Shown here in pieces: positions 21,079 to 43,235 of a stretch of DNA of 52,835 nt (its first letter is position 1; each line of letters begins with the position of its first letter). The stretch covers positions 1-52,835 of the IMG/VR virus record IMGVR_UViG_3300022666_000286; one strand, given 5' to 3'. The position numbers and the translations under genes are program-made. The notes under the pieces are model-generated. The model saw only the letters and a program-made list of their open reading frames with translations. It was not told the DNA's origin and did not search any database. The stretch comes from a virus. Taxonomy: Duplodnaviria; Caudoviricetes.

Positions 21079-21167
21079 GAATTGTGAATTGCGAATGTCA
21101 CCCACCACTCGCAACCCGTTACTTGTCATTTGTCACTCGTTACGCATCACGCACTACGGATCACTGC
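21079..21167. repeat. Degenerate tandem heptamer array
   Basis: GAATTGT GAATTGC ... TTACTTG TCATTTG TCACTCG TTACGCA TCACGCA CTACGGA TCACTGC. Confidence 0.55.
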
Positions 21168-23917
21168 TCACTTTCATCAAAGCCCAGCGGTAACTGGGTA
21201 AATCCTTCTTTTTTGGGTTTCCCTGCTTTTGGTTTGGCCGTCAGGCCGGAGGGCCACGCGCCCAAAAATCCAAGCGTCAGGCGGCGTTCGCTATGCCCGT
21301 TTTTCTGAATTTCGGCCAGAGCCTGGGCCACCTTGCGCATGGCGTCGCTCTGGTCGGCCAGCAACTCGGCCAATTGCTCGCGCTGGTTGTCCCGCCACAG
21401 CAAATCGGCGCTGTGGATTACATCAATCAGGGGGGCGTCGCCGCTGCGCAGGCGGTTGAGGGTTTGCTCCACCACCTTGGGCCGTTCTTCCGGCCCAAAC
21501 AGCACCATCCGCCGATTGTTATCCACCCGGCCCAGCAACCCCCGCTTTTCCAGTTCAGATAGTTCCACGCCGGTGGCTTTGTCCAACAGCAGCGCCGCGC
21601 CGGTTTCTACCTGCTGATGGCCGTAAGTCCAGCGCCAGAGCAGGGCAAACTGGGTTTCACGATCCACTTCGCCCAGGCTGACCCCTTGCAGGGCTTGCTC
21701 CAGCGAGAAATCCACCACCGCCTGCCGCACCAGGCTGAGAAAGTTGGCTACCGACACCCGCTGACCGGAGCTGTAGCGCACCTCCTCGAAGCGGGAGTAG
21801 ACCGATAGCGCCGGGCCGATGGCGCTGATGAAGAAATCAGCGCCGCCAATGCCGGCTGCCCAGAAGCGGGCCAAGGCTTGCTGCACCGCCTTACGCATCT
21901 CCGGCAGCACTTCATCCAGGTAACCGCTACGGCTGCTGGTGCGTTTGCGGCACACCAGAAAGATGGTAGATTGCAGTACGACCGCATTTAACCAGACCTG
22001 CCGGCTGCGCGTCTCGGTGTTGACCGGCCAGGAGCCTGTCACCTGAAAACCGGAGCTGATCAGGGCTGAGACTAAAGTTTCCCAGGCGCTGGTATCGGTG
22101 TGGGCGTACATAATCATGGCAATGCCGTCTGGTTTGAGAACGCGCCGCATCTCAACCAGAGCCGCTTGCATGCGCTCCTCAAAAAAAGCTTTGGCTGCCG
22201 CGCTGCTCTCGTGGCGGCTATTTTCCTGAATGATTTCTGCTTTTTTGGGGGTCAAGGGAGACGGGAAATGTTCAGGCAAAATATCTTTCAGGGCGCGATG
22301 CACCCAGACATATTGCATATCCGTCAAATCGCTGTAAGACACACTGTCGTAATATGGGGGATCAGTCAAGACGGCATCAAAATAATTATCTTCATACAGC
22401 AATTGCGTTGCATCTCCCCAGTCAACCTTTACTGGTTCTTTGGCAGCATCCAATACACGTTCAAGAGACGGTAATGCCCATTTGTGCATATTCTCCCAAC
22501 TACCAGATGCCCCACCAAACGGATTTACTTCGGCATAATCCCACAGCATTGGTATTCTATGACCAGCGGACGCTGACTGAACTTTATCACCACCACTATC
22601 CCAACGCGAAACCTCAGACAACTTCAAAACCATTCGGCTTAAAGAAAGGGACAAATACAGGCTCACCGCCTGGGCCATTTCTTTTGTTGTCCCATAATTG
22701 CCGATTTCAGTGTGAGCGGCGTGGATTACATCAACAAATGTTGTGAGGGCAAGTAACTGGCGGGCATTATGCACCTGTCCCCAAAAGCTAATACCATAAC
22801 GCCCCAAATTGTTGCCGCGTGATTGTTTGGGCAACGGTTCATCGGGCACTAACGGGAAAAAGGGGTCATCGTGCTCCATTTCGGCCTGGGCCAGCGCCTC
22901 GGCGGCGGCTTGAAAAGTTTGCCGATCTTCGTCACGGGCGGCCATGTAACTGGTGCCACTTTCACCCGCTTTTTTGTAGGCAAAGACCAGCAGCATGCGC
23001 CCGCCCTGCCCGGCAATAAACTGCCGTTTCACTTCGGCGGGGGCAATGGTTTGCGGGCAGTAGGGGCATTGCACCGAGCCGCTGGCCATGGTGCCGGTGT
23101 CGGGGTGGGCGGCTTTGGCGTCTTTGCCGGTTAACACTTCTATCTTCATACTCCGGTTCGGCTGGGGTAACAACCGAAAAGCTATCGGCGGTTTGTCTGG
23201 GCGCCGGCTCAGCCAGCGGTGGGCCACCAGGGGGATTTCGCCGCCGCAGGTAGGGTTGGTGCAGCGGATTGTCTTGGCCCAAAAGTAGGCTACCACGGTC
23301 TGGCCATCGTAGGGTGGGTAATACTTCTCTAGTTGGGGGCGGGCTTGTTCCAGCACCCAGTCGCCCCATTCAGCCACGGCCTGCACCAGGTTGCCGGTGC
23401 GGGGCGTGTCGCCAGTCAGGCTAAAGGCATCTTCGAGCCGGGGCGGCAACGGGAATCGGGTACCGGCAAAGCGCATCGGGTAATCCACTGTACCCAGCAG
23501 GGTCAATACGGCGTTGGGGTTCAGGTCGTGGGCATAGGTTTCGCATCCCAGGCGGGCGGCTTCCAGTGGCAGGGAGCCGCCGCCGGCGAAGGGGTCCAAT
23601 ACCCGGGGCGCATTGCCATCAAAAGTTTGGCGAATGCGTTGGCGCATCTCGTTAATCAGATCGGATCTATTCTGCGGCGCAGCATTAGGCAGCGTAGAGA
23701 TGATGAGTTTTAGTAAATCATCTCGCTCAGATTCCGTGATTGGAGCATTGACCAGCGCGGCAAAAGTGGCGGCGCGACAGGCCGCCAACGGTCGGCGGGC
23801 AAACCAGGTGTGGATAGCGTGAATATCGCCAATGGAAATGGATTTGGAGCTTTCCACCCCAATCTCGGTCAGGGGGATCAACTCCTCAATCATCCGTTTA
23901 GGCAGAGCCTCGGTCAT
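21161..23917 (-). CDS. DUF1156-family N6-adenine DNA methyltransferase with Zn ribbon
   Basis: WFARRPLAACRA, DPFAGGGS (SAM binding), CTNPTC/CPYC, TDPPYYD catalytic motif. Confidence 0.92.
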   Translation of the reverse strand: MTEALPKRMIEELIPLTEIGVESSKSISIGDIHAIHTWFARRPLAACRAATFAALVNAPITESERDDLLKLIISTLPNAAPQNRSDLINEMRQRIRQTFDGNAPRVLDPFAGGGSLPLEAARLGCETYAHDLNPNAVLTLLGTVDYPMRFAGTRFPLPPRLEDAFSLTGDTPRTGNLVQAVAEWGDWVLEQARPQLEKYYPPYDGQTVVAYFWAKTIRCTNPTCGGEIPLVAHRWLSRRPDKPPIAFRLLPQPNRSMKIEVLTGKDAKAAHPDTGTMASGSVQCPYCPQTIAPAEVKRQFIAGQGGRMLLVFAYKKAGESGTSYMAARDEDRQTFQAAAEALAQAEMEHDDPFFPLVPDEPLPKQSRGNNLGRYGISFWGQVHNARQLLALTTFVDVIHAAHTEIGNYGTTKEMAQAVSLYLSLSLSRMVLKLSEVSRWDSGGDKVQSASAGHRIPMLWDYAEVNPFGGASGSWENMHKWALPSLERVLDAAKEPVKVDWGDATQLLYEDNYFDAVLTDPPYYDSVSYSDLTDMQYVWVHRALKDILPEHFPSPLTPKKAEIIQENSRHESSAAAKAFFEERMQAALVEMRRVLKPDGIAMIMYAHTDTSAWETLVSALISSGFQVTGSWPVNTETRSRQVWLNAVVLQSTIFLVCRKRTSSRSGYLDEVLPEMRKAVQQALARFWAAGIGGADFFISAIGPALSVYSRFEEVRYSSGQRVSVANFLSLVRQAVVDFSLEQALQGVSLGEVDRETQFALLWRWTYGHQQVETGAALLLDKATGVELSELEKRGLLGRVDNNRRMVLFGPEERPKVVEQTLNRLRSGDAPLIDVIHSADLLWRDNQREQLAELLADQSDAMRKVAQALAEIQKNGHSERRLTLGFLGAWPSGLTAKPKAGKPKKEGFTQLPLGFDESEQ

Positions 23918-26900
23918 AAAAGTGTCTCCTCATCCGCCGCAGCTTGCCAGGTTGAAGCGTTAAAAACATAGCGTGCGCCGCTGTACAGCACGTCGTCATA
24001 GGTCATTTTTGATAGTGGGTCGCGGATAATGGTCAATTTAGGGTGAGCGCCCAACGGATCGCGCACCACGTAGATATAATACGCATGGCTCAGCTTTTTG
24101 GCAGCACGGCGCTCATTTTCGGTCAACTTGAACTGGCCAGTAGTGGTGCCTTTCACCTCAATGCAACGGGTACCTCCGGGGCCGGTGCTGTGCAAATCGT
24201 AGGGGTACATTTCATGTTCCCCGCTGACGTTTCTTACGTCACGCCCGTGCTTTTTCTCGTAAGCCTGGGCCAGTTCCTCGGCTTTCAGGCCAACATAAGG
24301 TTTTTCATCGATCATGTCTTCGGCAGGAGCGTCAATTAACGCATAAACCGCCGCCGCGCCGATGATTTGCGGCGCACCCAGCGAACAGGCGGCTTCCAGT
24401 TCAAACTGGCGGGTCAGGTCGGCCACTCGCGCTTTGGTCTGATTACGCCGGGCCTCGATCTTCGATAAATCAGCGTCATCCCCGGCAAATACCAGTTCGT
24501 TGTAAGCGTCATTGGCAGCCAATTCCGCGGCCTGGGCATCGGCCAGCATCGGCGCACGCCGCAAGGCGGTAATGTGCTGGCGCTGCCGTTGCACCCGCTG
24601 CAAAAATGGTAACTGCTGTTGGGCCAGACTCCAGGCGATCACCGGCTGCGGCTCTCGCGCCCACTGGCTCAGGTGGGGCGGCGTTAAAAAAGTCTCCGCC
24701 GCCGAAATGAGGTCAATCAGGCTGGCGGCCGGGGCCGACTCCAGCCCGGCAGCGTTTTGCTTGACGGCAAAAAGAGTTTCATCCACCACCTGATCATGGC
24801 CATCGCGCACTTGGGCGGTTAAAAACCAGAGCAGGTAACTCTCGCCCGGCGGCAGATCAACATCAATAAATTTGGCCCCCTGGATCAGGGTCTCGCCCCA
24901 GCGCTGCCGCACCAGCGCCAGCAGCGCGTTAAACACCGCCGTCCCCAGCGCCAGAAACGTGGCCTCGCCGGGCTGATCGGCGGCGTCCGTAGATGAGTCA
25001 TCATAAAAGGAAAAGCGTAGGCGTTGCTGAACCGGAAGCGCCAACGCCTGAGCAATGTTGCCGCGCTGCAAGGTTAGGCTCAGCAGCGCGGCATCGCCCG
25101 GCGGCTGGCTGGCGTCCGGCGCGGCCAGCGGCGTTTCGTTAAGCGCAAGCAGGGTATCTACAAAAAAATGCTGGGCATACTCCGGGGTCAGGCGCGACTG
25201 CCGCGACGACTCCTGCATTTGCCGAAATTGGACGGGGGAGATGGCAAAGGGATGCTCCGGCCACTGTTTATAACGTGTTTCGCCGGCTTGTGTCGCTTGA
25301 ATCAGGGCTTGCAGCGCTGTATCCTGCGAAGCCTCGGTGGTGGGTGAAACCGCTACTCGCGCCAATAATTGCTCCAGGCTTACATCGCTGACCAAAGTAC
25401 TGACCACATCAAACACCTGATCCCCTAAGTGGACGCGCATTTCATCCAGCCGACGCATCAGACCCAGCAGCACCGCACCCTCGCGGGTATCACCGGCGGT
25501 CAGGTTGTAAATTTTGGCGATGCGCTTTTGCCCGTAACGGTGGATGCGCCCCATGCGCTGTTCTAGCCGGGTAGGAATCCAGGGTAAATCGTAATTGACC
25601 ATGCGGGCGCAAAATTGCAGGTTGATACCTTCGCCGGCGGCTTCGGTAGCGAGCATCACCTGGCAGTGCCGCCGAAAATCGGTCTCGGCCTGCCGGCGCT
25701 GGGCGTGGTTCATGCTGCCGTCAATCTGGGTAACGACATAGCCCCAACCCTCAAACAGGCCACGCAAAAAATCCAGCGTATCTTTGAACTCGGTAAAGAC
25801 CAGCAGCTTTTCATCGTTGCCCGACGCAACACCCATCTCAACCAAAATTTCGCGCAGCTTCTCCACTTTGGTTTCGAGGCCGCTCTGCCGCACGGCATCC
25901 AGTTTAGCCAGCAGGTCATCAAGTTGGGCAATCTCCTTGTCCCGTTCAACCTGGGTTCTGGCGGGCGTGGCCGTCTCCGCCTGGGCTTCCTGTCGCCAGC
26001 GACTTGCTTCCGGCTGCTCCTCCAGGTCGCACCAATCGAATTCATCCGGGGTCAGGTCTGGCCCAAACAGCAACCCATCGCGCCGCCGGAGCAGTGATTT
26101 TTTCAACGCGGCAAAGCTGGAGGCCATTCGTCGCTGCAAAATGACCATCGCAAATTCGGTATTCACCTTCACCCGTCCGCCGATACGCTCGGCGGCGCGA
26201 TAAACCTTGTTCACATAATCGGTTAAGGCGGTGTAAAGCGCCATCTCCGGCGGGTTGTCAGCGATGGTATGCCAGCGGGTTTTCACCTGCCGGGGCTTAA
26301 AGAGGGGGTTGCCGTCAAAATCAACCATCTCTTCTTTGAGCCGGCGCAGCATCAGTGGGTTACCACGCTGACCCGGCGCTTTCTGGTTGACAATCTCCGG
26401 CTCGTAAATAGCGTCATCAAGCAGTTGCAGCAACCTGAGAAAGTTGGTGCGGTCGCCCTTGTGGGGCGTGGCCGTGGCCAGCACCAGATGTTTGGCGTTG
26501 CGAGCCAGGGTGCGCCCCAACCGGTAAGCCTGGGTCTCGCGCTGCTCGTAGCCGGCCAGATGGTGGGCCTCATCCACCAGCACCAAATCCCATGAGACAC
26601 TGGCCAACGTGGCCTGCACATCGGCCTGCCGGGCAAACGGCAGCGATGTAATCAACCGGTTGGCGGCGGTCCAGACCTGCGGGTTCTCACGTAACTGTTC
26701 CCGCTCGACAATCTCAAACTCAACCAAAAATTTTTCACGCAGTTCACGTTGCCACTGTACGGTCAACGCCGCTGGCGCAACAATCAAGGTGCGTAAATCC
26801 GGGTCGCGGCTGGCCAGTTCCTTGAACAACAAACCGCCCATCACCGTTTTGCCAGCCCCGGCGTCGTGGGCCATTAAATGCCGGATGCGCGGCTGCGGCA

Positions 26901-27318
26901 GCATCACCCCATACACCGCTTCAACCTGATGCGGCAGCAGATGCACCAGGGCGTTGTTGGCCGCCAGGAGCGGGTCGGCGGTATGAGCCAAGCGCAGCCG
27001 TTCGCCCTCAACAGCTAAACGGAAAGACTGAGCTTTAGCGGTAAATGAGAAGTCATACCTTTGTACGCAAAGAATATCATTCCATGCTGCCAACGGTAGG
27101 CTGGTGTTATAAAACCGCCGCGTCTGTACTCCAACAGCATAAAGCGTGACCAAATCTGGTGAGGACTCATCAATGGACAAAATATCCACCGGTTCCGGCC
27201 AGTAAGGGCTGGAAACCGTCACAGTGGAAATAAGGTGAGCACGCAGTTCGTTCACCTGTGAGGTATAATATTGTTGGTTATCTGGCTGTACCTCTTCTGT
27301 TTTTTCTGGTTCTGGCAC
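23914..27318 (-). CDS. SNF2-family helicase with C-terminal DUF3883-like nuclease
   Basis: HDAGAGKT, DEAHH, TATPH, QRMGRIHRYGQ; C-terminal YDL...IEVKG...LTENE. Confidence 0.92.
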   Translation of the reverse strand: MPEPEKTEEVQPDNQQYYTSQVNELRAHLISTVTVSSPYWPEPVDILSIDESSPDLVTLYAVGVQTRRFYNTSLPLAAWNDILCVQRYDFSFTAKAQSFRLAVEGERLRLAHTADPLLAANNALVHLLPHQVEAVYGVMLPQPRIRHLMAHDAGAGKTVMGGLLFKELASRDPDLRTLIVAPAALTVQWQRELREKFLVEFEIVEREQLRENPQVWTAANRLITSLPFARQADVQATLASVSWDLVLVDEAHHLAGYEQRETQAYRLGRTLARNAKHLVLATATPHKGDRTNFLRLLQLLDDAIYEPEIVNQKAPGQRGNPLMLRRLKEEMVDFDGNPLFKPRQVKTRWHTIADNPPEMALYTALTDYVNKVYRAAERIGGRVKVNTEFAMVILQRRMASSFAALKKSLLRRRDGLLFGPDLTPDEFDWCDLEEQPEASRWRQEAQAETATPARTQVERDKEIAQLDDLLAKLDAVRQSGLETKVEKLREILVEMGVASGNDEKLLVFTEFKDTLDFLRGLFEGWGYVVTQIDGSMNHAQRRQAETDFRRHCQVMLATEAAGEGINLQFCARMVNYDLPWIPTRLEQRMGRIHRYGQKRIAKIYNLTAGDTREGAVLLGLMRRLDEMRVHLGDQVFDVVSTLVSDVSLEQLLARVAVSPTTEASQDTALQALIQATQAGETRYKQWPEHPFAISPVQFRQMQESSRQSRLTPEYAQHFFVDTLLALNETPLAAPDASQPPGDAALLSLTLQRGNIAQALALPVQQRLRFSFYDDSSTDAADQPGEATFLALGTAVFNALLALVRQRWGETLIQGAKFIDVDLPPGESYLLWFLTAQVRDGHDQVVDETLFAVKQNAAGLESAPAASLIDLISAAETFLTPPHLSQWAREPQPVIAWSLAQQQLPFLQRVQRQRQHITALRRAPMLADAQAAELAANDAYNELVFAGDDADLSKIEARRNQTKARVADLTRQFELEAACSLGAPQIIGAAAVYALIDAPAEDMIDEKPYVGLKAEELAQAYEKKHGRDVRNVSGEHEMYPYDLHSTGPGGTRCIEVKGTTTGQFKLTENERRAAKKLSHAYYIYVVRDPLGAHPKLTIIRDPLSKMTYDDVLYSGARYVFNASTWQAAADEETLL

Positions 27319-28663: not shown

Positions 28664-29569
28664 CTAAATCTTCTCTTTCTCCATAGCGGGTAGAGCCTCA
28701 AACAGCGCCAACTGCCCCAGCGCCGCTTTCTTTCTGGCCCGGATCACCGGCGTGCGGCCCAAATCTGTTGTTTTGCGCCGTTTTACCTGCACCTTGCCCA
28801 GGTTACTTTCGCCCATAATGTTTTCGCCCACCAAAAACACTTCGCCGGTGCGCAAGTGGAGCAACTGTTGAAAGCTAACCACCGACAGGTATTTACGGAC
28901 CACCTGGTCGTAGTCTGGCCGGTAGGTGGTTTTGCCAAAAATACGCACGTTAGAGCCAAAAATCACCCGTTTGCTGAGAAACGTTGACCGTTGCGAGGCG
29001 ACCACCAGCATCATCCCCCGCTTGCGGCCATCGTGAGCCACTTTGAACAAGGCTTTACGGCTGGCGGTCTCGGCCTCATCGGCCCGACCTTCGGGCGCAA
29101 ATATATGGGCTTCATCCACCAAAACCAGCGCCGGGGTGCGCATTTTGCCGGCCAACCTAAAATGCTCGTTCACCAGCCGGGCAAAGGCAAACTGGGCCAA
29201 ATCCGGGTCGTCCTGATCCGACAAATCTACCACCAGGCTGTAATCATCCTCCAGCAGCATCCGAACCAGCTTTGGCCCATCCTTGCCCACCTCACTCAGC
29301 GGATAATGCGCCCGGCGGAGCGGCTCATCGTGGCCGGGGTGGCCCACCACCACCACATCCGGCCCCAGTTCGCGCAGCGAGCAGGCATCGCCGTTGGGGT
29401 CAAAAAACAAAAACGGGATACCCTGGCTGTAGGCTTCTTCGGCCAGCACCGCCATAATGTTACTTTTGCCCATCCCCGGATTACCGATGATGGCCATCCG
29501 TAACCCTTCGGTTTCATAGGGCGGCTCGGTTAGTTTTATTTGCACCCCGTGGGCTAACTCAAGTTGCAT
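28664..29569 (-). CDS. HerA/DUF87-like P-loop ATPase
   Basis: GNPGMGKS, FFDPNGD, LVDEAH, GRKRG, ASQR. Confidence 0.85.
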   Translation of the reverse strand: MQLELAHGVQIKLTEPPYETEGLRMAIIGNPGMGKSNIMAVLAEEAYSQGIPFLFFDPNGDACSLRELGPDVVVVGHPGHDEPLRRAHYPLSEVGKDGPKLVRMLLEDDYSLVVDLSDQDDPDLAQFAFARLVNEHFRLAGKMRTPALVLVDEAHIFAPEGRADEAETASRKALFKVAHDGRKRGMMLVVASQRSTFLSKRVIFGSNVRIFGKTTYRPDYDQVVRKYLSVVSFQQLLHLRTGEVFLVGENIMGESNLGKVQVKRRKTTDLGRTPVIRARKKAALGQLALFEALPAMEKEKI

Positions 29570-30678
29570 TATTCACCTCGTTCGATAAATTTCAGTTCCA
29601 CCGGGCCGTCCACAAATTGTTTCAGCGCCCGCGCCATGTGGTTTTTTAGCCGGGTTTCCAGCCATTCTTTGGTGTAATTGTTCTCAACCTCCACCGTCCA
29701 CACCCCATCATCAGCGGAGATGAGCGTTGTGTCTTTAAGACACGTGTCAAATGTGGCTTTGGTCATTTGCAGCCGTAACACATTTAGCACATCCGCCCAA
29801 AGCTCCGCCTGTTTATCCGGCGGAGGTAGCGCCAGAGCCTCCACCGGCGATGGTTCTCCGGCCATAGCCCGGGCCTCGGCCAGCCGGGTACTGATTATTT
29901 TCTGAAAGTACGGCAGTGGTTTTTTAGGCTGGTACGCCGCCGTTTTGTCTATGGCGGCTATCAGCCAATCTCTGGCCGTTTCTCCGCCGGTGATGGCCGC
30001 TTGCCGCAGGTCGGGGTCGGCTAACAACCGGTCAATAACCTCATTGGCGTTGATACCGCCGTTATTACCGCCAAAATAACGCTGCCAGAGTAGTTTTGGC
30101 TCTGTATCGTCACAAATCTGTGACGGTGGTGAGGTATCGTCATAAATTTGTGACGATACCTCGTTAGATGATGACTCCTTATCTTTTAAATCATTAATAG
30201 AATCATCATCATGATCAATCGTATCGTCATGAATTTGTGACGGGTATCGGCATGAATTTGTGACAGGGGGTTTACCATTGTGAGGGGACTCAGAGGAGGG
30301 CTTTTCACCCTCTGAATTTTGATAAGTCTGGACCTCCGGCTCAATAAGTCGGCTGGGCTGAAGGGCGCTTGCCAAGTCACCGGAATCGGCAGGGGTCAAT
30401 CGCTGCCGCCCATCGGTGAGGGTGATCGCGGTCACCAAGTTCATCCCAATTAATTTACCGAGGAGCCTTCTCACTTTTTCCCTGTTGGTATTCAAGTAGA
30501 TACCAAGCTCGGCGTTGTAGCACTCCACAAAGCCGTGCTGCCAACTGAGCGCCACCAAAATCTGGTACAGCCGGTACGCCTGATCCGGCAACTCAGCATT
30601 GAGCAGCGGAATAACGGATGACGTAAATGTTTTTCGTGGGGGTAAGGCAAACGGGTTTGAGCGTGTTTTACGCGGCAT
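29569..30678 (-). CDS. Replication initiator: N-terminal wHTH, internal iterons, C-terminal DnaA domain I-like
   Basis: LWADVLNVLRLQMTKATFDTCLKDT...KEWLETRL resembles the DnaA N-terminus; internal repeats. Confidence 0.8.
   Translation of the reverse strand: MPRKTRSNPFALPPRKTFTSSVIPLLNAELPDQAYRLYQILVALSWQHGFVECYNAELGIYLNTNREKVRRLLGKLIGMNLVTAITLTDGRQRLTPADSGDLASALQPSRLIEPEVQTYQNSEGEKPSSESPHNGKPPVTNSCRYPSQIHDDTIDHDDDSINDLKDKESSSNEVSSQIYDDTSPPSQICDDTEPKLLWQRYFGGNNGGINANEVIDRLLADPDLRQAAITGGETARDWLIAAIDKTAAYQPKKPLPYFQKIISTRLAEARAMAGEPSPVEALALPPPDKQAELWADVLNVLRLQMTKATFDTCLKDTTLISADDGVWTVEVENNYTKEWLETRLKNHMARALKQFVDGPVELKFIERGE
30104..30265. repeat. Iteron origin: four 22-bp repeats around an AT-rich core
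   Basis: GTATCGTCAYRAATYTGTGACG-like at 30104, 30134, 30221, 30244; AT-rich 30175-30220. Confidence 0.85.
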
Positions 30679-33089: not shown

Positions 33090-33115
33090 GGTTACACAAG
33101 CAACGTTGTTGGCCC
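33090..33115. repeat. dif/lox-like site 4 (GGTTACACAA-GCAACG-TTGTTGGCCC)
   Basis: Arms identical to inverted site at 43895; overlaps E1 stop codon. Confidence 0.8.
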
Positions 33116-33880
33116 TGTTTCAACGGCCTCAACATACTCGCTGCGGGCGTTGCCGGCCTGCAAGTTTACGTAAGTAGCCCAGGTATCCAGGTTGCGGCTG
33201 ATGATGAGCCGGTACAGGTAATGGGCGGCAAAACTGGCCACCGTCTCGTTAACCATCAAGCCCTGAACGTTGGCCAGGGCGTCATCGGCGCAGGCCCGCC
33301 GCCGTTTTTTCTCTTTGGCCACCAACTCCGGCAGCCGCACCGACGGCAGCGGCAACCCGGAGCAATAGCCCAACGGGCTGATTTTGGGCATATCCGCCGC
33401 CAGGTTGCCAATGACCACCTGGCCGTGCTGGTCGCCGTTGCCGCAATCCAGCCACCACCACCGGCCTGGCTTTGCGCGGGCAATTTTGTCAATCACTCGC
33501 CGGGCAGCGGTGTTGTCTACGCAGCCCACCACCACATTCAGGTCAGCCGAATCAATCTTAAGGTTGGCGGCGCTGACCGGCTCGACAAAGAAGCGGATGG
33601 GCAGGCCAAAGGCGCGGCTGTAGCGCACCGCCAGGGCGCGGGCCTTGGGCTGCCCCACTTCGCTGTCTACAAACAATTGCCGCCACAGGTTTTTGCGCTC
33701 TACCGTGTCGGGGTCAATCAGGGTTAAACCCAGTTCAAGGCCCATTTCACGGGCGTGGCCGGCCAGCCGGGCCAGGCGTTGCACCAGGTAACTGCCGGTG
33801 CCGCCACAGCCCACCACGCTGATGGCCACCCGCTGCGGCTGCCCCACGTTCACCACCAGGCTGGGTTTAAGCGCGTCCAT
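33092..33880 (-). CDS. ThiF/E1-like activating enzyme (PRTRC ThiF family)
   Basis: VVGCGGTGS, DPDTVERKNLWRQ, GCVDN..AR, WLDCGN, ACADDAL...QGLMVN (candidate catalytic Cys). Confidence 0.92.
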   Translation of the reverse strand: MDALKPSLVVNVGQPQRVAISVVGCGGTGSYLVQRLARLAGHAREMGLELGLTLIDPDTVERKNLWRQLFVDSEVGQPKARALAVRYSRAFGLPIRFFVEPVSAANLKIDSADLNVVVGCVDNTAARRVIDKIARAKPGRWWWLDCGNGDQHGQVVIGNLAADMPKISPLGYCSGLPLPSVRLPELVAKEKKRRRACADDALANVQGLMVNETVASFAAHYLYRLIISRNLDTWATYVNLQAGNARSEYVEAVETGPTTLLV

Positions 33881-34502
33881 TGGCCCCGCTCCCGTGCAAA
33901 TTTTGCACTGACACATCCCTGATCCCGCCGTCGAGGTCGGCAAACAGCCAGCTTGCCGGCACGTCCACCATATCGCCGTACAGACCCAACCGCACCCGGA
34001 TTTCCGGCGCGGCCAGCACCCGGCCAATGACGGCGTAGAAGCGGAAGCCCTGCTCGTCGGCATCGTCAACCCCGGAGAAAAAGGCGGGCATCGTGTGGTG
34101 GCTGTGCAACTCGCAGACCACGTTGTCGTAGCCCTGGCCGCTGTAGGATTGCACCCGCACCGCGGTTACTTGCTGGGCCGGGCGCGACACCCGGTAGCGG
34201 TCGCCGTCCCAGCGGAAGAGGTAGGTTTGTTCCTGGCGCTGGCGGGCTTTGTCGCGGGCATCCAGCAACACGTAATACAACAGCGTGGCGGGGATGCGCC
34301 CGTGGGCCAGCATCACCATCCCCGCCAAATCAGGCAGGCCGCGCACCCGGCAGGGGGCCACCGGCAAACAGGCGGCCACATAGTTACCGTAAGCCCGTTT
34401 GAACAGGCCGTTACCGGCCAGCAGGTAATCGTACCCGGCCGGGTGGGGCGGCAATTCGCCCCGGTAAATGGAATGGTTGACCAGATCAGCGAACAGATTC
34501 AT
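33867..34502 (-). CDS. JAB/MPN deubiquitinase-like peptidase (PRTRC protein A)
   Basis: ELHSHHTMPAFFSGVDDADE JAMM motif; LLAGNGLF N-terminal motif. Confidence 0.9.
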   Translation of the reverse strand: MNLFADLVNHSIYRGELPPHPAGYDYLLAGNGLFKRAYGNYVAACLPVAPCRVRGLPDLAGMVMLAHGRIPATLLYYVLLDARDKARQRQEQTYLFRWDGDRYRVSRPAQQVTAVRVQSYSGQGYDNVVCELHSHHTMPAFFSGVDDADEQGFRFYAVIGRVLAAPEIRVRLGLYGDMVDVPASWLFADLDGGIRDVSVQNLHGSGANGRA

Positions 34503-35160
34503 ACAGCCACGCCTCCAGAGTGATATTCATCGGGATCAAATCAGCGGTGGGGTATTCCGCCCGCTGTTCCCCGGCCAAAATACGCCACAACGCGGTCACA
34601 TCGGCCGGGTATTGGTTGCTCTTGCCGTTGGCCAGGTCGCGGTTAAACTCGCTCTCAAAAAACAGGCGGGCCGCCGCCCGGATGGTTGCCAACCCGGCCG
34701 GCGGAAAGTTTACCGAGCCGGGGCAAACCCGGCTGCCGGCGTACACGTTGGGAAACGGGGCATGATACAGTCCGGTGGCAGCGGCAGGCCAGCCGGTCTC
34801 GGCCAGCGCCGCCAGCCGGTAGGTGGTTTGATTGCCCGCCAGCACCAGCGGCGGGCAGGGAATGGTGAACCCTTCGCCGCCGGCCAGCCGCACCCGGCGG
34901 GGTTCCGGCGGCAGGTAGAGCGCCACCAGTTCGGCCAGGCCGCGCCGGGCGTAGTAGAGCAGGTGGGGCGGCAGCAGGCCGGGGCTAACCTGCACATCGG
35001 CCAGAATTTGCGCCACATCCAGCGGCGAAACCTCATCTACCTGGGCCGGTTTTCCGCGTTCATATATGGTGCGCAGAATAGACTCGGTATAAATGTCCAG
35101 CGTTAACACCAACTGCTGGCTGTCCAGGTCGGGGCCTGGGGTCAGGTCAAGAATGTTCAT
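34486..35160 (-). CDS. Prokaryotic E2-like enzyme (PRTRC protein B)
   Basis: LYHAPFPNVYAGSRVCPGS with Cys; FFESEF. Confidence 0.88.
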   Translation of the reverse strand: MNILDLTPGPDLDSQQLVLTLDIYTESILRTIYERGKPAQVDEVSPLDVAQILADVQVSPGLLPPHLLYYARRGLAELVALYLPPEPRRVRLAGGEGFTIPCPPLVLAGNQTTYRLAALAETGWPAAATGLYHAPFPNVYAGSRVCPGSVNFPPAGLATIRAAARLFFESEFNRDLANGKSNQYPADVTALWRILAGEQRAEYPTADLIPMNITLEAWLYESVR

Positions 35161-35932
35161 CGGTTAATTCTCCGGTCAGTAAGTAAATGGCCACCTGCCG
35201 CAAAACCGCGGTTTCATTGGCTTGGCAACGATTGAACAGGGTGTTGGCCGGGTCAAAGATTGTTTCCAGCGCCTCCTCGTATTCGGCGGCCAGGGCGGTG
35301 ATGGTTTCCATTGACCAATCGTATTCCCAGCGCAACTCGCCGCTGTCCTCCGGCGACACGTCCACAAACACGTTGCCGGTGTTGCCCACAAGCCAGTAAT
35401 ACATTGCCCGCAGGCCGGGGATGGCGTTTTGTTCCAGCCGCGCGACGGCAACGTTGCGGTCAATCTCCGCCGGCGACGGCAGGGCCAACCCCAGCCGTTT
35501 GGACAGATCCGCCCACCAATTCTGATGTCGTTCCGGCGAATGCTCATCGCTGCTGATGGCCAGCACCAGCCGCCACAGGTCGTTCCAGTCGTCAAAATCA
35601 ATGGCCCACCCCCCGGATAACCCGTCCACCTGCAGAAAATCGGACAGGTCGGGCAGCGCCAATTCGCCCGGCTCGGTTTCGGCCAGTTCGCGCAGTTCGG
35701 CGTACTCCTCGGCGTAATCGGTGTAAACCGGAAAGTATTCCTGGTCATCGAGCGCCTTAACCACCTGGCCCACCGCCGTACTGATACCGGCCGGGGTCAG
35801 TTGCAGGTTGCCGCCGCACAACTCGCGGTAAACCCGGGCAAAATTCATAAATACCAGCCGGTTGGCCAAAGCATCGCGCAGGGCGCTGTAGGCTACCGGG
35901 GGTCGTCGAATGTCCACGTGGCTTTGCTGCAT
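35147..35932 (-). CDS. Acidic helical protein, paralog 1 (PRTRC F position)
   Basis: YFP, NTGNVFVD, W..E.I..LA..Y shared with neighbour. Confidence 0.6.
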   Translation of the reverse strand: MQQSHVDIRRPPVAYSALRDALANRLVFMNFARVYRELCGGNLQLTPAGISTAVGQVVKALDDQEYFPVYTDYAEEYAELRELAETEPGELALPDLSDFLQVDGLSGGWAIDFDDWNDLWRLVLAISSDEHSPERHQNWWADLSKRLGLALPSPAEIDRNVAVARLEQNAIPGLRAMYYWLVGNTGNVFVDVSPEDSGELRWEYDWSMETITALAAEYEEALETIFDPANTLFNRCQANETAVLRQVAIYLLTGELTDEHS

Positions 35933-36675
35933 CGGGTTAACATCTCCATTACGGCATAGTGGTTCTGGTCCGGGGCGGCCTCGAACCAGGTTTTGAACGC
36001 CTCAATCTGCTCAACCACCGGCTGCGCCTGCCGCCAATAATCGGCCAACTGTTGCACATCATCTTTGGTCCAGTACCAAAACGTGTACTGGTAATCCCCC
36101 ACAAAATCCGGGCCGGGCAACAGCAAAAAAGGGTTGGCCAACTGCTGCATAGAAATGTAGATCATCTGCCCCAACCCGGGCCACGGGTCGCCCTGGGCCG
36201 TTAACCAATCCAACCCAATTTGCCAGGCTTCCGCCGAGGCGTAGGGGGCCAGCCACCAGACATCCGGCGGGTAGCCAATATCTTCAAAAAACCATTCATC
36301 CTGCTCTTGCAGGTAATTGAGCAGCATCACCGCGCCGGCGGCCTGCTGGTATGGTTCCAGGTCGCCAATAGCGGCTTCCTCAAATGGAATGCGGTAGCCG
36401 CTGATGGGGACGGTTTCGGCCAGCGGGTCGCCGCCATAAACCAACTCCTCCAGCCACAACCAGTTGAGCGGGAACAACTCCCGGTCAACCCGCTCAAACA
36501 GCCGGTCGGTCAGCCCGGCTAACGTTCCGGCGGGCGGTGGCTCGTTGAAGATGGTGGCCCACAGCCGGGCCGCCTTGAGCGGCGACAACGCCTCATTCAG
36601 CCGCTCGATCAGCGCGGTGTAACTTACAGGCCGGGCGGCGGTATGCGCGACGGGCGCGACGGCATTTGTTGGCAT
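35893..36675 (-). CDS. Acidic helical protein, paralog 2 (PRTRC F position)
   Basis: LFP, LANPFL, W..D.V..LA.YW shared with neighbour. Confidence 0.6.
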   Translation of the reverse strand: MPTNAVAPVAHTAARPVSYTALIERLNEALSPLKAARLWATIFNEPPPAGTLAGLTDRLFERVDRELFPLNWLWLEELVYGGDPLAETVPISGYRIPFEEAAIGDLEPYQQAAGAVMLLNYLQEQDEWFFEDIGYPPDVWWLAPYASAEAWQIGLDWLTAQGDPWPGLGQMIYISMQQLANPFLLLPGPDFVGDYQYTFWYWTKDDVQQLADYWRQAQPVVEQIEAFKTWFEAAPDQNHYAVMEMLTRCSKATWTFDDPR

Positions 36676-36863
36676 TGGGCGCTGATCCGTTTGATTGTGT
36701 CTAACTGCCGGTTTAATTGGGCAACGGCCTGGTCTATCTCTTCCAACCGGGCCAGGTAAATATCCAGGGTATCAGTTCGTTTCACTTCCAGGTAGAGCGA
36801 TACCGCCGGCACGTCCGCCGGCGGTAAGCCGGTCAACCTGGCGGCAAGGCCGGCGGCGGTCAC
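36624..36863 (-). CDS. Small hypothetical protein
   Basis: GTGA-coupled, coiled-coil C-terminus. Confidence 0.5.
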   Translation of the reverse strand: MTAAGLAARLTGLPPADVPAVSLYLEVKRTDTLDIYLARLEEIDQAVAQLNRQLDTIKRISAQCQQMPSRPSRIPPPGL

Positions 36864-37156
36864 AGCACAAATCCCGGCAGCCGGGGCGCAATCTCCGGCG
36901 GCAAACTGGCCAATTGCTGATCCAGCGGCACCAGGCTAACCTGCGGTTTCTCGCGCCAGAGCAGGTAGGTTCCGTTGGGTAGCCAGTATCCGTCGCCGCA
37001 CTGCGAGTAATGGGTGGTCAATGCGGCTGATTTACTGGGAGCCTCAACGGTGACTTTGTGTTCCTGCCAATCGCTTTCGTCCGGCTGCTCGCCGGCTATA
37101 TCTTCCACGGCAGCGGCGGTTAGAATGGTAGCCCACCCGCTAAGGATGAATTTCAT
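36860..37156 (-). CDS. Hypothetical protein
   Basis: Start MKFILSGW after GAAGGGGG. Confidence 0.55.
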   Translation of the reverse strand: MKFILSGWATILTAAAVEDIAGEQPDESDWQEHKVTVEAPSKSAALTTHYSQCGDGYWLPNGTYLLWREKPQVSLVPLDQQLASLPPEIAPRLPGFVL

Positions 37157-37694
37157 TGTTGCCCCCTTCCCCGGCATTTGATTGGGCCGCTTTGATAGCG
37201 CGTTTGAGCTTGTCGATGGCGATAAATTCACTGAGTTCAACGGGCTGGTTTTGTTTGATCACTTTTACGGCAAAGGTCGCGGCCTCCAGCAACTCCGGCG
37301 CGGCGGCAAACAGTTGGGCGTAAGCGTGGCTCTCCGGGTCGTGGGCCGGGCCGGTCACGGCTACCAAGCCGCGAGTTTCGGCATCCATCACAGCGGTATG
37401 TTCCGGGATTTGCAGGAATTTAGTAGTGGGGGTGTAATACCCCACCGCCAGGCCCGGCCCGCCGCCTTTGGTGCCGGCTTTTTTGGTGAAGGTTAGCTCC
37501 AGGTCGCCATCGGCCAGAACGCGCTGGCCGATCTCGCATTTGGCCGCTTCGGGAAACTGCTTGGCCAACTCACGCTGCACAATCTCAATGGTCAACGCGC
37601 CCTGCGGGTTGGAGTACGGCCCAAAAGTTTTGCCGTCGTATTTGACCACAATCCGGCTGTGACTGATTTTGTCGGTTGGTTTCAGGTCACTCAT
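37140..37694 (-). CDS. Ubiquitin-like protein (PRTRC protein C-like) fused to a C-terminal domain
   Basis: KYDG...QFPE...FTKKAGTKG ends at 37464, then in-frame GGPG linker and ~108 aa containing AAAPELLEA. Confidence 0.75.
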   Translation of the reverse strand: MSDLKPTDKISHSRIVVKYDGKTFGPYSNPQGALTIEIVQRELAKQFPEAAKCEIGQRVLADGDLELTFTKKAGTKGGGPGLAVGYYTPTTKFLQIPEHTAVMDAETRGLVAVTGPAHDPESHAYAQLFAAAPELLEAATFAVKVIKQNQPVELSEFIAIDKLKRAIKAAQSNAGEGGNNEIHP

Positions 37695-38628
37695 TGGTAA
37701 TCTCCTCAGTTTCGCTTTCAAGATAATTAATGATGGCCTGCCGCAGAACACTTTCTAACTCGGCGTACAAACCGGAGTAATACAAGGGGATGTACCCCTT
37801 CAACAAGCCACCCTCAGCATTGATCTCCAACTCAAACGCCCAGGTTTCCGCCCGTTTGAGCCGAATGTTCAGCAACAAATCAGGCTTAACCGGCGCGGCC
37901 ACATTCGGTTCTTCAATTTCAACCGGCGCGGAAAAATCCAGGGTAACGGGTGGGGTTGGGGCTTTGATGGACTTAGCCAAAGGTTGAGCCTGCTGCCGCG
38001 ATGCTTCCGCTTCGGCTTTTACCCGATCCGCCATCAACGGTGTCGCCGGCGGCGTAATCGGTTTGGCTTGCTGGCGCAGCCGGCTTAAGGCCGTTGGGGG
38101 GGCAACTTCCGGGGCGCGGCTGGCCGGATCGTTCGGTTCTTCGGGGGCAACTTCCGGTTCGGCTTCGGCTCCAGTCAAGGTGGCTTGTTGGGGTTGAGCG
38201 GCCTGGGCCGCCGCCTTATGGTCGGCCACAATCGCTTTGGCCGTGGTGTGGCTGATGCGTTCCCCGGCTTCGGCGCGGTCGAGCACCTCGTCCACGGCGC
38301 TGGCCGGGGTGCTGGGCGCGGCCAGCAGATACAGGGCGCTGGTGGCTACATCCATCTGGGCAAAGTTGGCCCGCCCCCTGAATTGCTTGTAGACGCCTAT
38401 AAAGTTATAGGCAGTCCTGCGCGACCAATCGAACTCGGCCTGAAGCCAGGCGTCGAACTGGCCGTTGCCGAGTTTAGCCTGCACCTCCAGCAGTTTTTCG
38501 CCCACCTGCATGACATTTTCGGCGGTGGCGCGCATCAGCGTTTTGATTTCGCCGGCGCGTTGCTGGGCTACAATCCGGGTTTCACTGTCAAGCTGGGTGT
38601 AATCGAACAGGGTCAGTTGGGTACTCAA
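37687..38628 (-). CDS. DUF3102-like HTH protein with PRTRC E-like C-terminus
   Basis: VGEKLLEVQ...GQFDAWL..EF..SRRTAYNFI; Pro/Ala linker; IPLYYSGLYAELE. Confidence 0.7.
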   Translation of the reverse strand: MSTQLTLFDYTQLDSETRIVAQQRAGEIKTLMRATAENVMQVGEKLLEVQAKLGNGQFDAWLQAEFDWSRRTAYNFIGVYKQFRGRANFAQMDVATSALYLLAAPSTPASAVDEVLDRAEAGERISHTTAKAIVADHKAAAQAAQPQQATLTGAEAEPEVAPEEPNDPASRAPEVAPPTALSRLRQQAKPITPPATPLMADRVKAEAEASRQQAQPLAKSIKAPTPPVTLDFSAPVEIEEPNVAAPVKPDLLLNIRLKRAETWAFELEINAEGGLLKGYIPLYYSGLYAELESVLRQAIINYLESETEEITNE

Positions 38629-42161: not shown

Positions 42162-43235
42162 TTACCCCAAAAACCCGCTCACCGCCAGCTTGGCCAACCC
42201 GCGAGCGTTGGCCAGGGCCGGGTTGGCGGCCATCTCCGCGTGAGGGTACTGCCGTTGCAACCGCCCGGCCATAGCCAGCGCCCCGCCACCGGTCAGGATG
42301 ATGCGGAACCGTTTGGCATCCACTTTGATTCGTTCCCGGATAAAGTTCAGTACGTCAGCCGCCAGGCTGTTAAGCGCCTGGTCAATCTCGGCGGTAATGC
42401 TCACGGCCTCGCCGTGAACGTAAATGACCGGTTTTTCACCGTTAACCCGTTGTTGTAAGCGGGCGTCGGCTTCGTGCAGGCTAAGGGCTACCCCGTGCCC
42501 CTGCTTTACCCGCTGCCGGATCATCTCCGCCGCCCGCGCCATTCCCAGGTCGTCCCCGGCGGTATAGCGGTCGCTGGGTTTGCCGTTTTCTACGGCAAAC
42601 AGATCAAGCGTGTTAAAGCCCTGGTCAATTACCAGCACCGGCGCGGTGCGCCCCGCTGCTCCGCGAATCCATTGGCCCTCCTCATTCAGCGCCCAATCCA
42701 TCCAGGCCCCTAACGGTTGGGCTACCTGCGCCCGAATTTTTGCAACCTCAAAGGCGCTTTCCTGCCCGCCAAAGGTAAAGCGGTGCGGCCCCAACAGCCA
42801 TTTGGCCAGCGCCTTTTCGGTGGCTTCGGCTTTGGCTTTATCCGCCAGCATAGTTACCGGCAGGCCAATAGCTACCGCCACCCGCTGGCCGGTTAGCCCC
42901 AACTGCACCACCAGCGCGTAAAACATTGCCCGCAGTTCGGCGCCATCAATAAACCGGCTTTCGTCTATGTTTTCGATTGGCCGGGTGTAAGCCGCCACGT
43001 TGGGGCCAACCAGGTAATCCATTCCTTCAAACGATACCTGAAAGGGGACCTCGCCCCGTTTCTGGCTGTCCAGCCCGGCCAGGTTTAGCCCGCTGGACTC
43101 AATCCGCCCCACTCCGGCCACGCTGGGCATTGTTACCAAATTCATCTGCCCGTTAACCCAGGCCGCTTTCATCATCCCGTTGCCGGGGTCCCAGCCAAAT
43201 TTTTCCACCGCACTTTTGTTCGTCATCTTGAACAA
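42162..43235 (-). CDS. ParM/StbA actin-like ATPase (PRTRC D-like)
   Basis: GWDPGNGMMK, IGLP, VAQP.G, IDQGFNTLD, LTGGGA, ANARG. Confidence 0.9.
   Translation of the reverse strand: MFKMTNKSAVEKFGWDPGNGMMKAAWVNGQMNLVTMPSVAGVGRIESSGLNLAGLDSQKRGEVPFQVSFEGMDYLVGPNVAAYTRPIENIDESRFIDGAELRAMFYALVVQLGLTGQRVAVAIGLPVTMLADKAKAEATEKALAKWLLGPHRFTFGGQESAFEVAKIRAQVAQPLGAWMDWALNEEGQWIRGAAGRTAPVLVIDQGFNTLDLFAVENGKPSDRYTAGDDLGMARAAEMIRQRVKQGHGVALSLHEADARLQQRVNGEKPVIYVHGEAVSITAEIDQALNSLAADVLNFIRERIKVDAKRFRIILTGGGALAMAGRLQRQYPHAEMAANPALANARGLAKLAVSGFLG

Follow-up and report, generated by a model that had tools for sequence, protein, structure and literature searches.

Why should a phage gene for a ubiquitin-like protein (Ubl) read straight through the terminal glycine on which the protein's function would depend? 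E1 chemistry requires an exposed C-terminal glycine on the Ubl, yet on the minus strand of the DNA analysed here (the window: positions 1 to 52,835 of the Caudoviricetes record IMGVR_UViG_3300022666_000286, 52,835 nucleotides in all), one gene at 37140-37694 joins a Ubl of the PRTRC/'6D' type in frame to a second protein domain, which we call the cargo. Comparison with related sequences suggests that the position after the glycine is a slot in which the cargo can be exchanged. We consider it probable that the JAB peptidase encoded in the same operon cleaves after the glycine (G77), which would make the Ubl available to E1 and set the cargo free. The cleavage, the enzyme performing it and any purpose of the fusion are what we infer, and the evidence for and against them is set out below.

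The open reading frame (protein P0001) starts with an ATG at 37694, ends with a stop codon at 37140-37142 and encodes 184 residues. An alternative upstream GTG start at 37751 is present in the open reading frame listing; we took the ATG as the start because homologs begin MSDLK..., a GAGGAG sequence lies 7 nucleotides upstream and the ATG overlaps the stop codon of the preceding DUF3102 gene. Residues 1-77 (37464-37694, minus strand) form the Ubl domain and end ...FTKKAGTKG, the G77 codon occupying bases 37466-37464. In the same frame follows a remainder of 107 residues (residues 78-184; 37143-37463, minus strand) that begins GGPG and constitutes the cargo domain. The first-pass annotation had described this in-frame fusion, with a 77-residue Ubl-like domain ending GTKG at 37464 and leading through GGPG into the cargo; the reading frame and its translation bear this out, except that the cargo has 107 residues and not 108. 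On the minus strand, 37452-37469 encodes the flexible linker (K76-G77 / G78-G79-P80-G81) that contains the predicted cleavage site for the JAB, with the predicted scissile bond between codons 37464-37466 and 37461-37463. The junction was checked in assembled Logan contigs rather than raw reads. Two runs were covered: X1, at depth 80 and possibly the source sample itself, and X2, at a depth of about 3.6 and from another sample in the same study. Across 37100-37750 the contigs of both runs match the window with 0 substitutions and 0 indels. Neither has a stop codon at the junction, including bases 37455-37470, which had been singled out for confirmation. The agreement of the two samples argues against a local assembly error at the junction.

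Several lines of comparison relate the N-terminal domain to the PRTRC_C/Prok_Ub proteins. The NCBIfam model PRTRC_C (TIGR03738) aligns residues 28-77 with profile positions 17-66 of 66 (E 4e-4), and the end of the profile coincides exactly with G77; the Prok_Ub model (PF14454) matches with an E value of 0.012. Relatives linked to the window Ubl via custom hidden Markov models (HMMs) pass the curated cut-offs, L008 with 49.1 bits and L039, L031, L033, L038, L040 and L037 with at least 25 bits. In an alignment of 17 sequences K76 is invariant and G77 nearly so. AlphaFold2 (AF2), supplied with an 80-row alignment, modelled the full protein as two confident domains with a mean predicted local distance difference test score (pLDDT) of 89.5 and a predicted template modelling score (pTM) of 0.55. 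Linker residues 75-80 have a pLDDT below 50 and are modelled as disordered. The N-terminal domain comprises strands 14-19 and 22-28, helices 36-46 and 48-52, and strands 54-59 and 65-70, and when modelled alone (pLDDT 82.8) it adopts the same topology. When this domain was aligned with 48,161 chains using VIA-align, at least 40 of the 50 rows were beta-grasp proteins by title (FUBI, MoaD, ubiquitin variants, SUMO, ISG15, PB1, UBX). The composition of this list, the modelled topology and the family links together support a beta-grasp fold, in agreement with what had been proposed for the domain at the outset. That canonical PRTRC protein C ends at GTKG, as stated in the first-pass annotation, also holds for a 69-residue Azospira plasmid protein and for P0156 and P0158.

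We next turn to the cargo. An exhaustive HMMER search of 1.84 billion representatives returned 241 proteins at E <=0.001, the best reaching E 5e-28. Among the 150 matches listed of these 241, 143 cover residues 62-184 or thereabouts, and most are free-standing proteins of about 90-130 residues in which the match begins within the first 10-20 residues. On this comparison we regard the C-terminal part as a genuine coding sequence and protein domain and not as an accidentally open frame. A precomputed collection labels P0001 as PF27050, and the ESM Atlas gives the aligned part the name PF27050 Phage_P22_Y8K6, with structural TM values of 0.70/0.74; the locally scanned copy of Pfam gave no match for the cargo, the label coming from the collection and the Atlas. 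The domain is modelled as two strands and a long helical hairpin. The consensus of the 80-sequence alignment includes LFAAAPxLLxAL, in line with the earlier remark that the AAAPELLEA-type motif is common in small phage proteins. As regards function, the Pfam and PHROGs scans yielded no assignment for the cargo, the sole PHROGs match being phrog_1273 ('unknown function', E 4.6e-6), and VIA on the full model returned generic helical hairpins (residues 126-181, Z up to 6.3) with no functional lead for the cargo. An HMM built from the free-standing homologs scores the window cargo at E 3e-34. Nearly all listed PF27050 relatives are free-standing or lie behind other N-terminal domains; among the proteins examined, an in-frame Ubl precedes PF27050 only in the window, L001, L002, P0002 and, partly, L037. 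In P0008, P0017, P0021 and P0044 the PF27050 domain follows another N-terminal domain, common to the four, which has about 65-80 residues and lacks a TKG end, so the family joins other partners too.

To place the fusion among its relatives, we compared 38 related Ubl sequences, the window included. Seven end exactly at TKG (P0156, which is also L003, P0158, L014, L029, L030, L032 and Azospira P0159), four carry short tails of at most 7 residues (P0157, P0013, L009, L012) and 27 extend in frame, counts that are neither independent nor natural frequencies, as the 38 sequences are mutually related and were retrieved with queries or patterns containing TKG. Of the extended forms, 24 continue for 33-370 residues and three are more distant: P0129 has a helical tail of 88 residues, P0065 repeats the Ubl four times head to tail, with SGTKG at the end of every copy and one extra residue after the last, and P0146 consists of five head-to-tail copies. 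The junctions of the poly-Ubl proteins are exact, TKG being followed directly by M or A, and fused proteins retain the TKG glycine motif. The first-pass annotation had proposed to compare homologs for free versus fused forms and for variable cargo, and all of these were found.

Three word-indexed protein searches and two contig scans supplied the close relatives, whose Ubl identity is 66-86%. Of 297 candidates in the search with the whole protein, 11 matched; the search with the Ubl alone gave 6 of 57 among longer proteins and 4 of 4 among proteins of similar length, and the first contig scans confirmed 2 of 113 pattern matches in viral contigs and 1 of 120 in genomes. Twelve close sequences resulted. 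In P0156 (= L003, from a Chloroflexi metagenome-assembled genome) and P0158 the chain stops at the glycine, in P0157 (5 further residues) and P0013 the tail is short or atypical, and in the other eight (the window, P0002, L001, L002, P0003, P0004, P0005 and P0006) the glycine is followed by 75-153 residues. In the eight close relatives that were aligned, identity is high through ...TKG and gone immediately beyond, and the DNA alignment breaks at the same point. A Ubl profile search found the domain in 10 of 401 genomes of the same phylum, the window's own among them; of 10 further loci in those genomes, six have a conserved helical extension of 68-78 residues, one has an extension of 370 residues, two are short-tailed (2 and 7 residues) and one ends at the glycine. 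When viral contigs were scanned again, 14 of 29 pattern matches were confirmed and 12 of them were new contigs; the Ubl stops at the glycine in three of the 12 and extends by 33-246 residues in the other nine. A tblastn search of plasmids with a fused Ubl gave a single match, the Azospira cassette; the same program found no match for the 184-residue protein in 50,697 phage records, and a metagenome contig scan confirmed 0 of 450 pattern matches. One candidate, P0029 (1145 residues, seven stretches, E 9e-12 against the Ubl), is a low-complexity repetitive protein that was judged spurious and dropped. At L021:5915-7210, the same place as L011, a 431-residue open reading frame runs from a Ubl through the start of the helical tail and a stretch resembling out-of-frame sequence into the next protein of the operon; from its sequence it may be a triple fusion or the product of assembly frameshifts, and it was counted as extended.

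The extensions differ widely. The 25 that are at least 33 residues long fall into 13 blastp clusters (E <1e-3): the helical partner (9 fusions), a PF27050-like and Cys-rich group (L001, L002, P0002, P0004), the window with L037, P0003, and nine singletons. Because the HMM of free-standing PF27050 homologs, besides matching the window, also matches the cargos of L001 (E 4e-8) and L002 (E 5e-6), two of these clusters were merged, leaving about 12 types. The L031 cargo is a Pfam DUF551 domain (23.1 bits against a cut-off of 22) and that of P0005 a weaker one (19.7 bits); both families typically occur as small phage proteins that stand alone. The helical extension is homologous to a separate 79-residue gene of the window operon (hhalign probability 92.8, E 4e-7), with blastp linking P0129 and L040, and P0003 lacks the PF27050 cargo, its Ubl being joined directly to a homolog of the 98-residue protein encoded next in the window (blastp 62% over 98 residues). 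In L003 the Ubl stop codon overlaps the ATG of the helical-partner gene (GGATGA). Immediately beyond the terminal glycine, the sequences carry G, N, S, A, R, H, Q, L or M. Taken at the level of sequence, the codon after the glycine is a slot that is filled in relatives by a stop, by unrelated small proteins, by the helical partner or by more Ubl copies. In a comparison of the window with phage contig L001, identity is 83% for the Ubl and 48-81% for the flanking genes; for the cargo it is 36%, over only 44 aligned columns. As both cargos match the same HMM despite this wide divergence, we conclude that the Ubl-PF27050 fusion is old and maintained, with the cargo as its fastest-changing part. 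A recent stop-loss fusion, raised earlier as an alternative, is unlikely, since a fusion of the Ubl-PF27050 type is kept in two other phage contigs whose flanks are 48-81% identical.

How could such a precursor enter a conjugation pathway? In the mechanism that we propose, the Ubl modifier of the PRTRC/'6D' E1-E2-JAB system would be translated as one chain with the PF27050 protein. The cognate JAB (33867-34502) would bind the Ubl, the flexible ...KKAGTKG-GGPG... tail would thread through the active site, and the enzyme would hydrolyse the G77-G78 peptide bond. One product would be Ubl 1-77, with a free C-terminal glycine for adenylation by the ThiF-type E1 and subsequent transfer to the E2 cysteine; the other would be free cargo beginning GGPG. 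Processing by the cognate JAB had been proposed in the first-pass annotation, and the checks made here favour it. Processing of the 6d Ubl by JAB was predicted by Iyer et al. in 2006 (PMC1779556). Cleavages of this kind are reported for BilC, which cuts a BilA-GFP (green fluorescent protein) fusion after Gly97 (PMC10557695), and for the JAB domain of BubCD, which cuts the natural BubAB Ubl-E2 pre-protein after G229 (PMC11601596).

We then examined a predicted complex of the JAB with Ubl residues 1-80. The prediction scored 0.87 (three runs: 0.87, 0.89 and 0.79), with 0.00 for the best of three controls. Among solved complexes 58 of 80 attain that mark, as do 2 of 110 mismatched pairs, a calibration that is only rough here since custom alignments (6 rows for the JAB, 17 for the Ubl) were used as input. 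The runs share at least 70% of their contacts with a partner pLDDT of at least 85, and the modelled interface brings JAB residues 91, 133, 135 and 143-146 into confident contact with Ubl residues 70-79. We read the model as indicating a compatible geometry, with the junction residues in the JAB active site, and not as indicating cleavage.

Besides the relatedness of the 38 sequences and the rough calibration of the complex score, several observations weigh against processing by the JAB. Solved JAMM-Ubl complexes exist, and the score may partly reflect these known structures. The window Ubl lies below both curated cut-offs (20.4 against 45.95 bits for TIGR03738, 15.9 against 25 bits for PF14454) while the relatives linked to it pass; we therefore call it a divergent PRTRC_C/Prok_Ub relative, judged by its sequence, and not a model-certified member. 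Its fold matches are weak: the best VIA match, FUBI, has a Z of only 5.1 (rmsd 2.4, 58 aligned residues), MoaD comes next with Z 4.8, and Z values of this size are not significant alone. Foldseek searches of the PDB with the full model and with the N-terminal domain returned nothing at E <=0.001. The exact 184-residue protein occurs once (1 member, 1 contig) in a collection of 5.8 billion proteins. We found no cleavage-product, proteome or RNA evidence for the window protein or for any PRTRC system. Finally, 7 of the 38 relatives are made with the glycine already free, so processing is not obligatory for the pathway. For this last reason we have downgraded gating of conjugation as the main purpose of the fusion; the first-pass annotation had the fusion gate conjugation, which does not hold in general. 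Equimolar or timed release of the cargo and assistance to its folding are equally possible purposes, and capping of the Ubl until JAB is present is another possible one.

Three other explanations were weighed. Of these, the one that survives best, though we think it unlikely, is that the Ubl remains uncleaved as a permanent N-terminal adaptor that tethers the cargo to E1, E2, JAB or Ubl receptors without itself being conjugated. Rad23 and parkin are eukaryotic proteins with an integral Ubl domain of this sort. The evolutionary stability of the fusion would suit an adaptor, as would the fact that cleavage is inferred rather than demonstrated; the pTM of 0.55 tells us only that the domains lack a fixed orientation to one another. 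Against an adaptor, fused forms retain the conjugation-type ...GTKG end, and the linker is modelled as disordered. A search of the whole genome bin revealed no second Ubl gene, the one match being the fused Ubl itself, so that an adaptor would leave the intact E1 and E2 without a substrate. The exact TKG junctions of the poly-Ubl proteins and the relatives that stop at the glycine further indicate that the glycine is a functional end.

Less probable still is that another protease, of host or phage, processes the fusion, or that cargo is made from an internal start (for example GTG at V84), with the JAB acting solely as a deconjugating isopeptidase. No direct evidence identifies which enzyme cuts, and the JAB family also removes conjugates (PMC1779556, PMC10557695). 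Against this stand the complex model, which seats the junction residues in the JAB active site, and BilC and BubCD, which perform exactly such a cleavage (PMC10557695, PMC11601596); as to an internal start, no Shine-Dalgarno-like sequence was seen before V84 by eye, a scan not having been run. We give very little credence to a neutral accident, in which an inserted accessory gene or a lost Ubl stop (or an assembly error) is tolerated or mildly harmful and has no role: a single indel at an overlap such as that in L003 would be enough to fuse two separate genes, genes are gained and lost unusually often in this region and the exact protein was seen once, but the contigs of two samples agree, 27 of 38 in-frame forms with about 12 cargo types are far above expectation for random insertions with their own start codon, the PF27050-type fusion is common to phages whose neighbouring proteins have diverged to 48-81% identity, and the fusion point lies within about 4 residues of the start of the free-standing homologs.

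The genes around the fusion, all on the minus strand, include those of an E2, a JAB and an E1. Upstream, the DUF3102 gene (37687-38628) ends in the stop codon that overlaps the Ubl start. Downstream, a 98-residue protein (MKFILSG...; 36860-37156) begins within the end of the cargo reading frame, overlapping it by 17 nucleotides (37140-37156) in another frame; in L001 and L002 the corresponding two genes lie 3 nucleotides apart. The 79-residue helical operon partner follows (36624-36863), whose homolog is the C-terminal extension of the Ubl in nine other loci, and between it and the E2 are two conserved genes of 260 and 261 residues (35147-36675), 74% and 60% identical to their L001 counterparts. 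The E2-like protein (PRTRC_B/Prok-E2_D; 34486-35160) has a C146 that is invariant in 8 of 8 sequences. In the JAB/JAMM peptidase (PRTRC_A/Prok-JAB; 33867-34502), E91, H133-S-H135, S143 and D146 are invariant in all six aligned JABs. The ThiF-type E1 (PRTRC ThiF; 33092-34069, start codon uncertain) carries a GCGGTG nucleotide loop and cysteines C236 and C260 that are invariant in 7 of 7 sequences, and scores 147.6 bits against the PRTRC_ThiF cut-off of 144.75. From these residues the catalytic equipment of E2, JAB and E1 looks intact. Fused Ubls are found in such operons elsewhere as well: the 12 new viral loci, which are cut off 3 kb downstream, include 10 with an E2 homolog, 9 with a JAB homolog and 5 with an E1 homolog, and in seven genomic loci Pfam identified JAB in six, ThiF in six and Prok-E2_D in five, counts that cover the submitted open reading frames.

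A short proline-rich C-terminus followed by G or C and then F or L is shared by the 79- and 98-residue proteins, the fused helical tails and the Azospira 78-residue protein (...IPPPGL, ...RLPGFVL, ...VAPTGF, ...KVPLGF and ...MVPPCF, with P0129, L040 and L016:6213-6449 among the examples). It is conceivable from these sequences that the ends are a putative docking peptide. A DnaN (beta-clamp) paralog lies just upstream in canonical operons (L016, L018, L020).

By gene content, the host element looks like a temperate siphovirus-type phage of an environmental bacterium, probably one of the Chloroflexota, and the window is approximately one whole contig of a 71-contig genome bin of 5.67 Mb. PHROGs assignments include tape measure, Dit, major tail, major head, head morphogenesis/protease, terminase-like and integrase proteins. 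Profile scans (NCBIfam, Pfam) of the window proteins also identified a PRTRC_D-like ParM (42162-43235) and an FtsK-type ATPase, and gave no match to the ParB and PRTRC_E models; DUF6527 had no match among the 15 neighbouring proteins scanned. Beside the replication and partition block, 21161-27318 encodes a large DNA methyltransferase (phrog_10183, E 1e-107) and a 1134-residue helicase-like protein, and a 369-residue protein at 29569-30678 has a DnaA N-terminal domain (PF11638, E 1e-8) at its C-terminus, an unusual placement.

PRTRC/6D was described by comparative genomics in 2006 (PMC1779556), and we found no experimental work on it in the literature searched. The system as such, and the trimming or cleavage of Ubl-X proteins by JAB enzymes (BilA-GFP, BubAB), are already known; what is new here is that, in a 6D/PRTRC system carried by a phage, the Ubl has a slot for exchangeable cargo. 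In the literature searched, which included a catalogue of Ubl architectures (PMC11601603), with the supplementary tables of the Bil and Bub papers outside its scope, no publication was found on the 6d/PRTRC Ubl being commonly encoded as a fusion, on partner swapping among about 12 unrelated proteins at this Ubl, or on poly-Ubl with a capping residue in the family. Should it be the rule that the Ubl is made as a precursor carrying exchangeable cargo, the JAB gains a defined and easily assayed substrate, small phage proteins such as PF27050 and DUF551 become tied to a ubiquitin-like pathway, and the ubiquitin-fusion and polyubiquitin layout, usually seen as eukaryotic, has a diverse counterpart in bacterial viruses. 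PRTRC/6D systems are widespread on plasmids, integrative and conjugative elements (ICEs) and phages. It is tempting, although we hold this only tentatively, to go further and regard the Ubl as a general N-terminal 'release tag', with a recombination slot after the TKG glycine that takes interchangeable accessory proteins and a JAB that releases them in step with Ubl activation. In that case the released proteins would bear N-termini unavailable to ordinary translation (leucine or arginine at the N-terminus is an N-degron residue in bacteria), the cargos would offer a first handle on the role of a system that has been an orphan for 20 years, and the arrangement would be a viral or prokaryotic counterpart, possibly a forerunner, of eukaryotic ubiquitin-fusion gene architecture. 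It would also provide a natural orthogonal pair of Ubl and protease for releasing proteins with chosen N-termini.

Among known systems, the closest is the 6d operon itself. Like its Ubl (PRTRC C/Prok_Ub, PF14454), the window Ubl is a small, predicted beta-grasp protein with a conserved terminal glycine in GTKG, carried on a mobile element, and the window operon matches the 6d type in having a Prok-E2_D E2, a JAB and a ThiF E1 adjoining the Ubl (PMC1779556). The Azospira plasmid cassette has the order E, C, 78-residue protein, 339-residue protein, B, A, ThiF, which the window order matches; its protein C has 69 residues and ends ...GVGTKG before the stop. PRTRC C has been described as a small standalone protein (PMC1779556), in contrast to the two-domain chain of 184 residues in the window and to the 26 of its 37 relatives that are also extended. 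The usual PRTRC element is a plasmid or ICE, whereas the window element is a tailed phage, although phage- or prophage-borne PRTRC is already on record (PMC13366799; bioRxiv 10.64898/2026.10.01.756045). The latter study reports that PRTRC protein B, the E2, is diversified by a diversity-generating retroelement in a prophage of Phocaeicola vulgatus, which hints that the E2 may recognise variable targets.

In Bil (Chambers et al., 2023), a JAB deubiquitinase (DUB) pre-processes the Ubl at its terminal glycine and removes folded GFP from an artificial fusion; natural BilA has only one extra residue, and Bil is a host anti-phage defence (PMC10557695), whereas the window system is phage-borne. BubAB of Type I Bub (6E; Ye et al., 2024) is a natural Ubl-X fusion that its cognate JAB cuts right after the conserved glycine, yielding an activatable Ubl and a functional C-terminal protein; there the part played by X always falls to the system's own E2, JAB and E1 form one protein, and the operon also has a DUF6527 protease (PMC11601596). 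In the window, by contrast, E2, JAB and E1 are separate genes, and across the relatives X is variable and consists mostly of small phage accessory proteins from outside the pathway. With separate genes, a PF27050 cargo and no DUF6527 match among the neighbours scanned, the window falls outside Type I Bub. The eukaryotic ubiquitin fusion genes are polyubiquitin, Ub-L40 (UBA52), Ub-S27a (RPS27A) and FUBI-S30 (FAU); their products are released by DUBs at the terminal glycine, and the cargos are two or three fixed ribosomal proteins. These genes and the window share an N-terminal Ubl with an in-frame protein directly after the terminal glycine, and capping of the last Ubl copy by an extra residue, as in eukaryotic polyubiquitin, is seen in P0065. 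The window differs in its swappable cargo and in the JAMM peptidase encoded in the same operon, and we compare the layouts here without claiming common descent.

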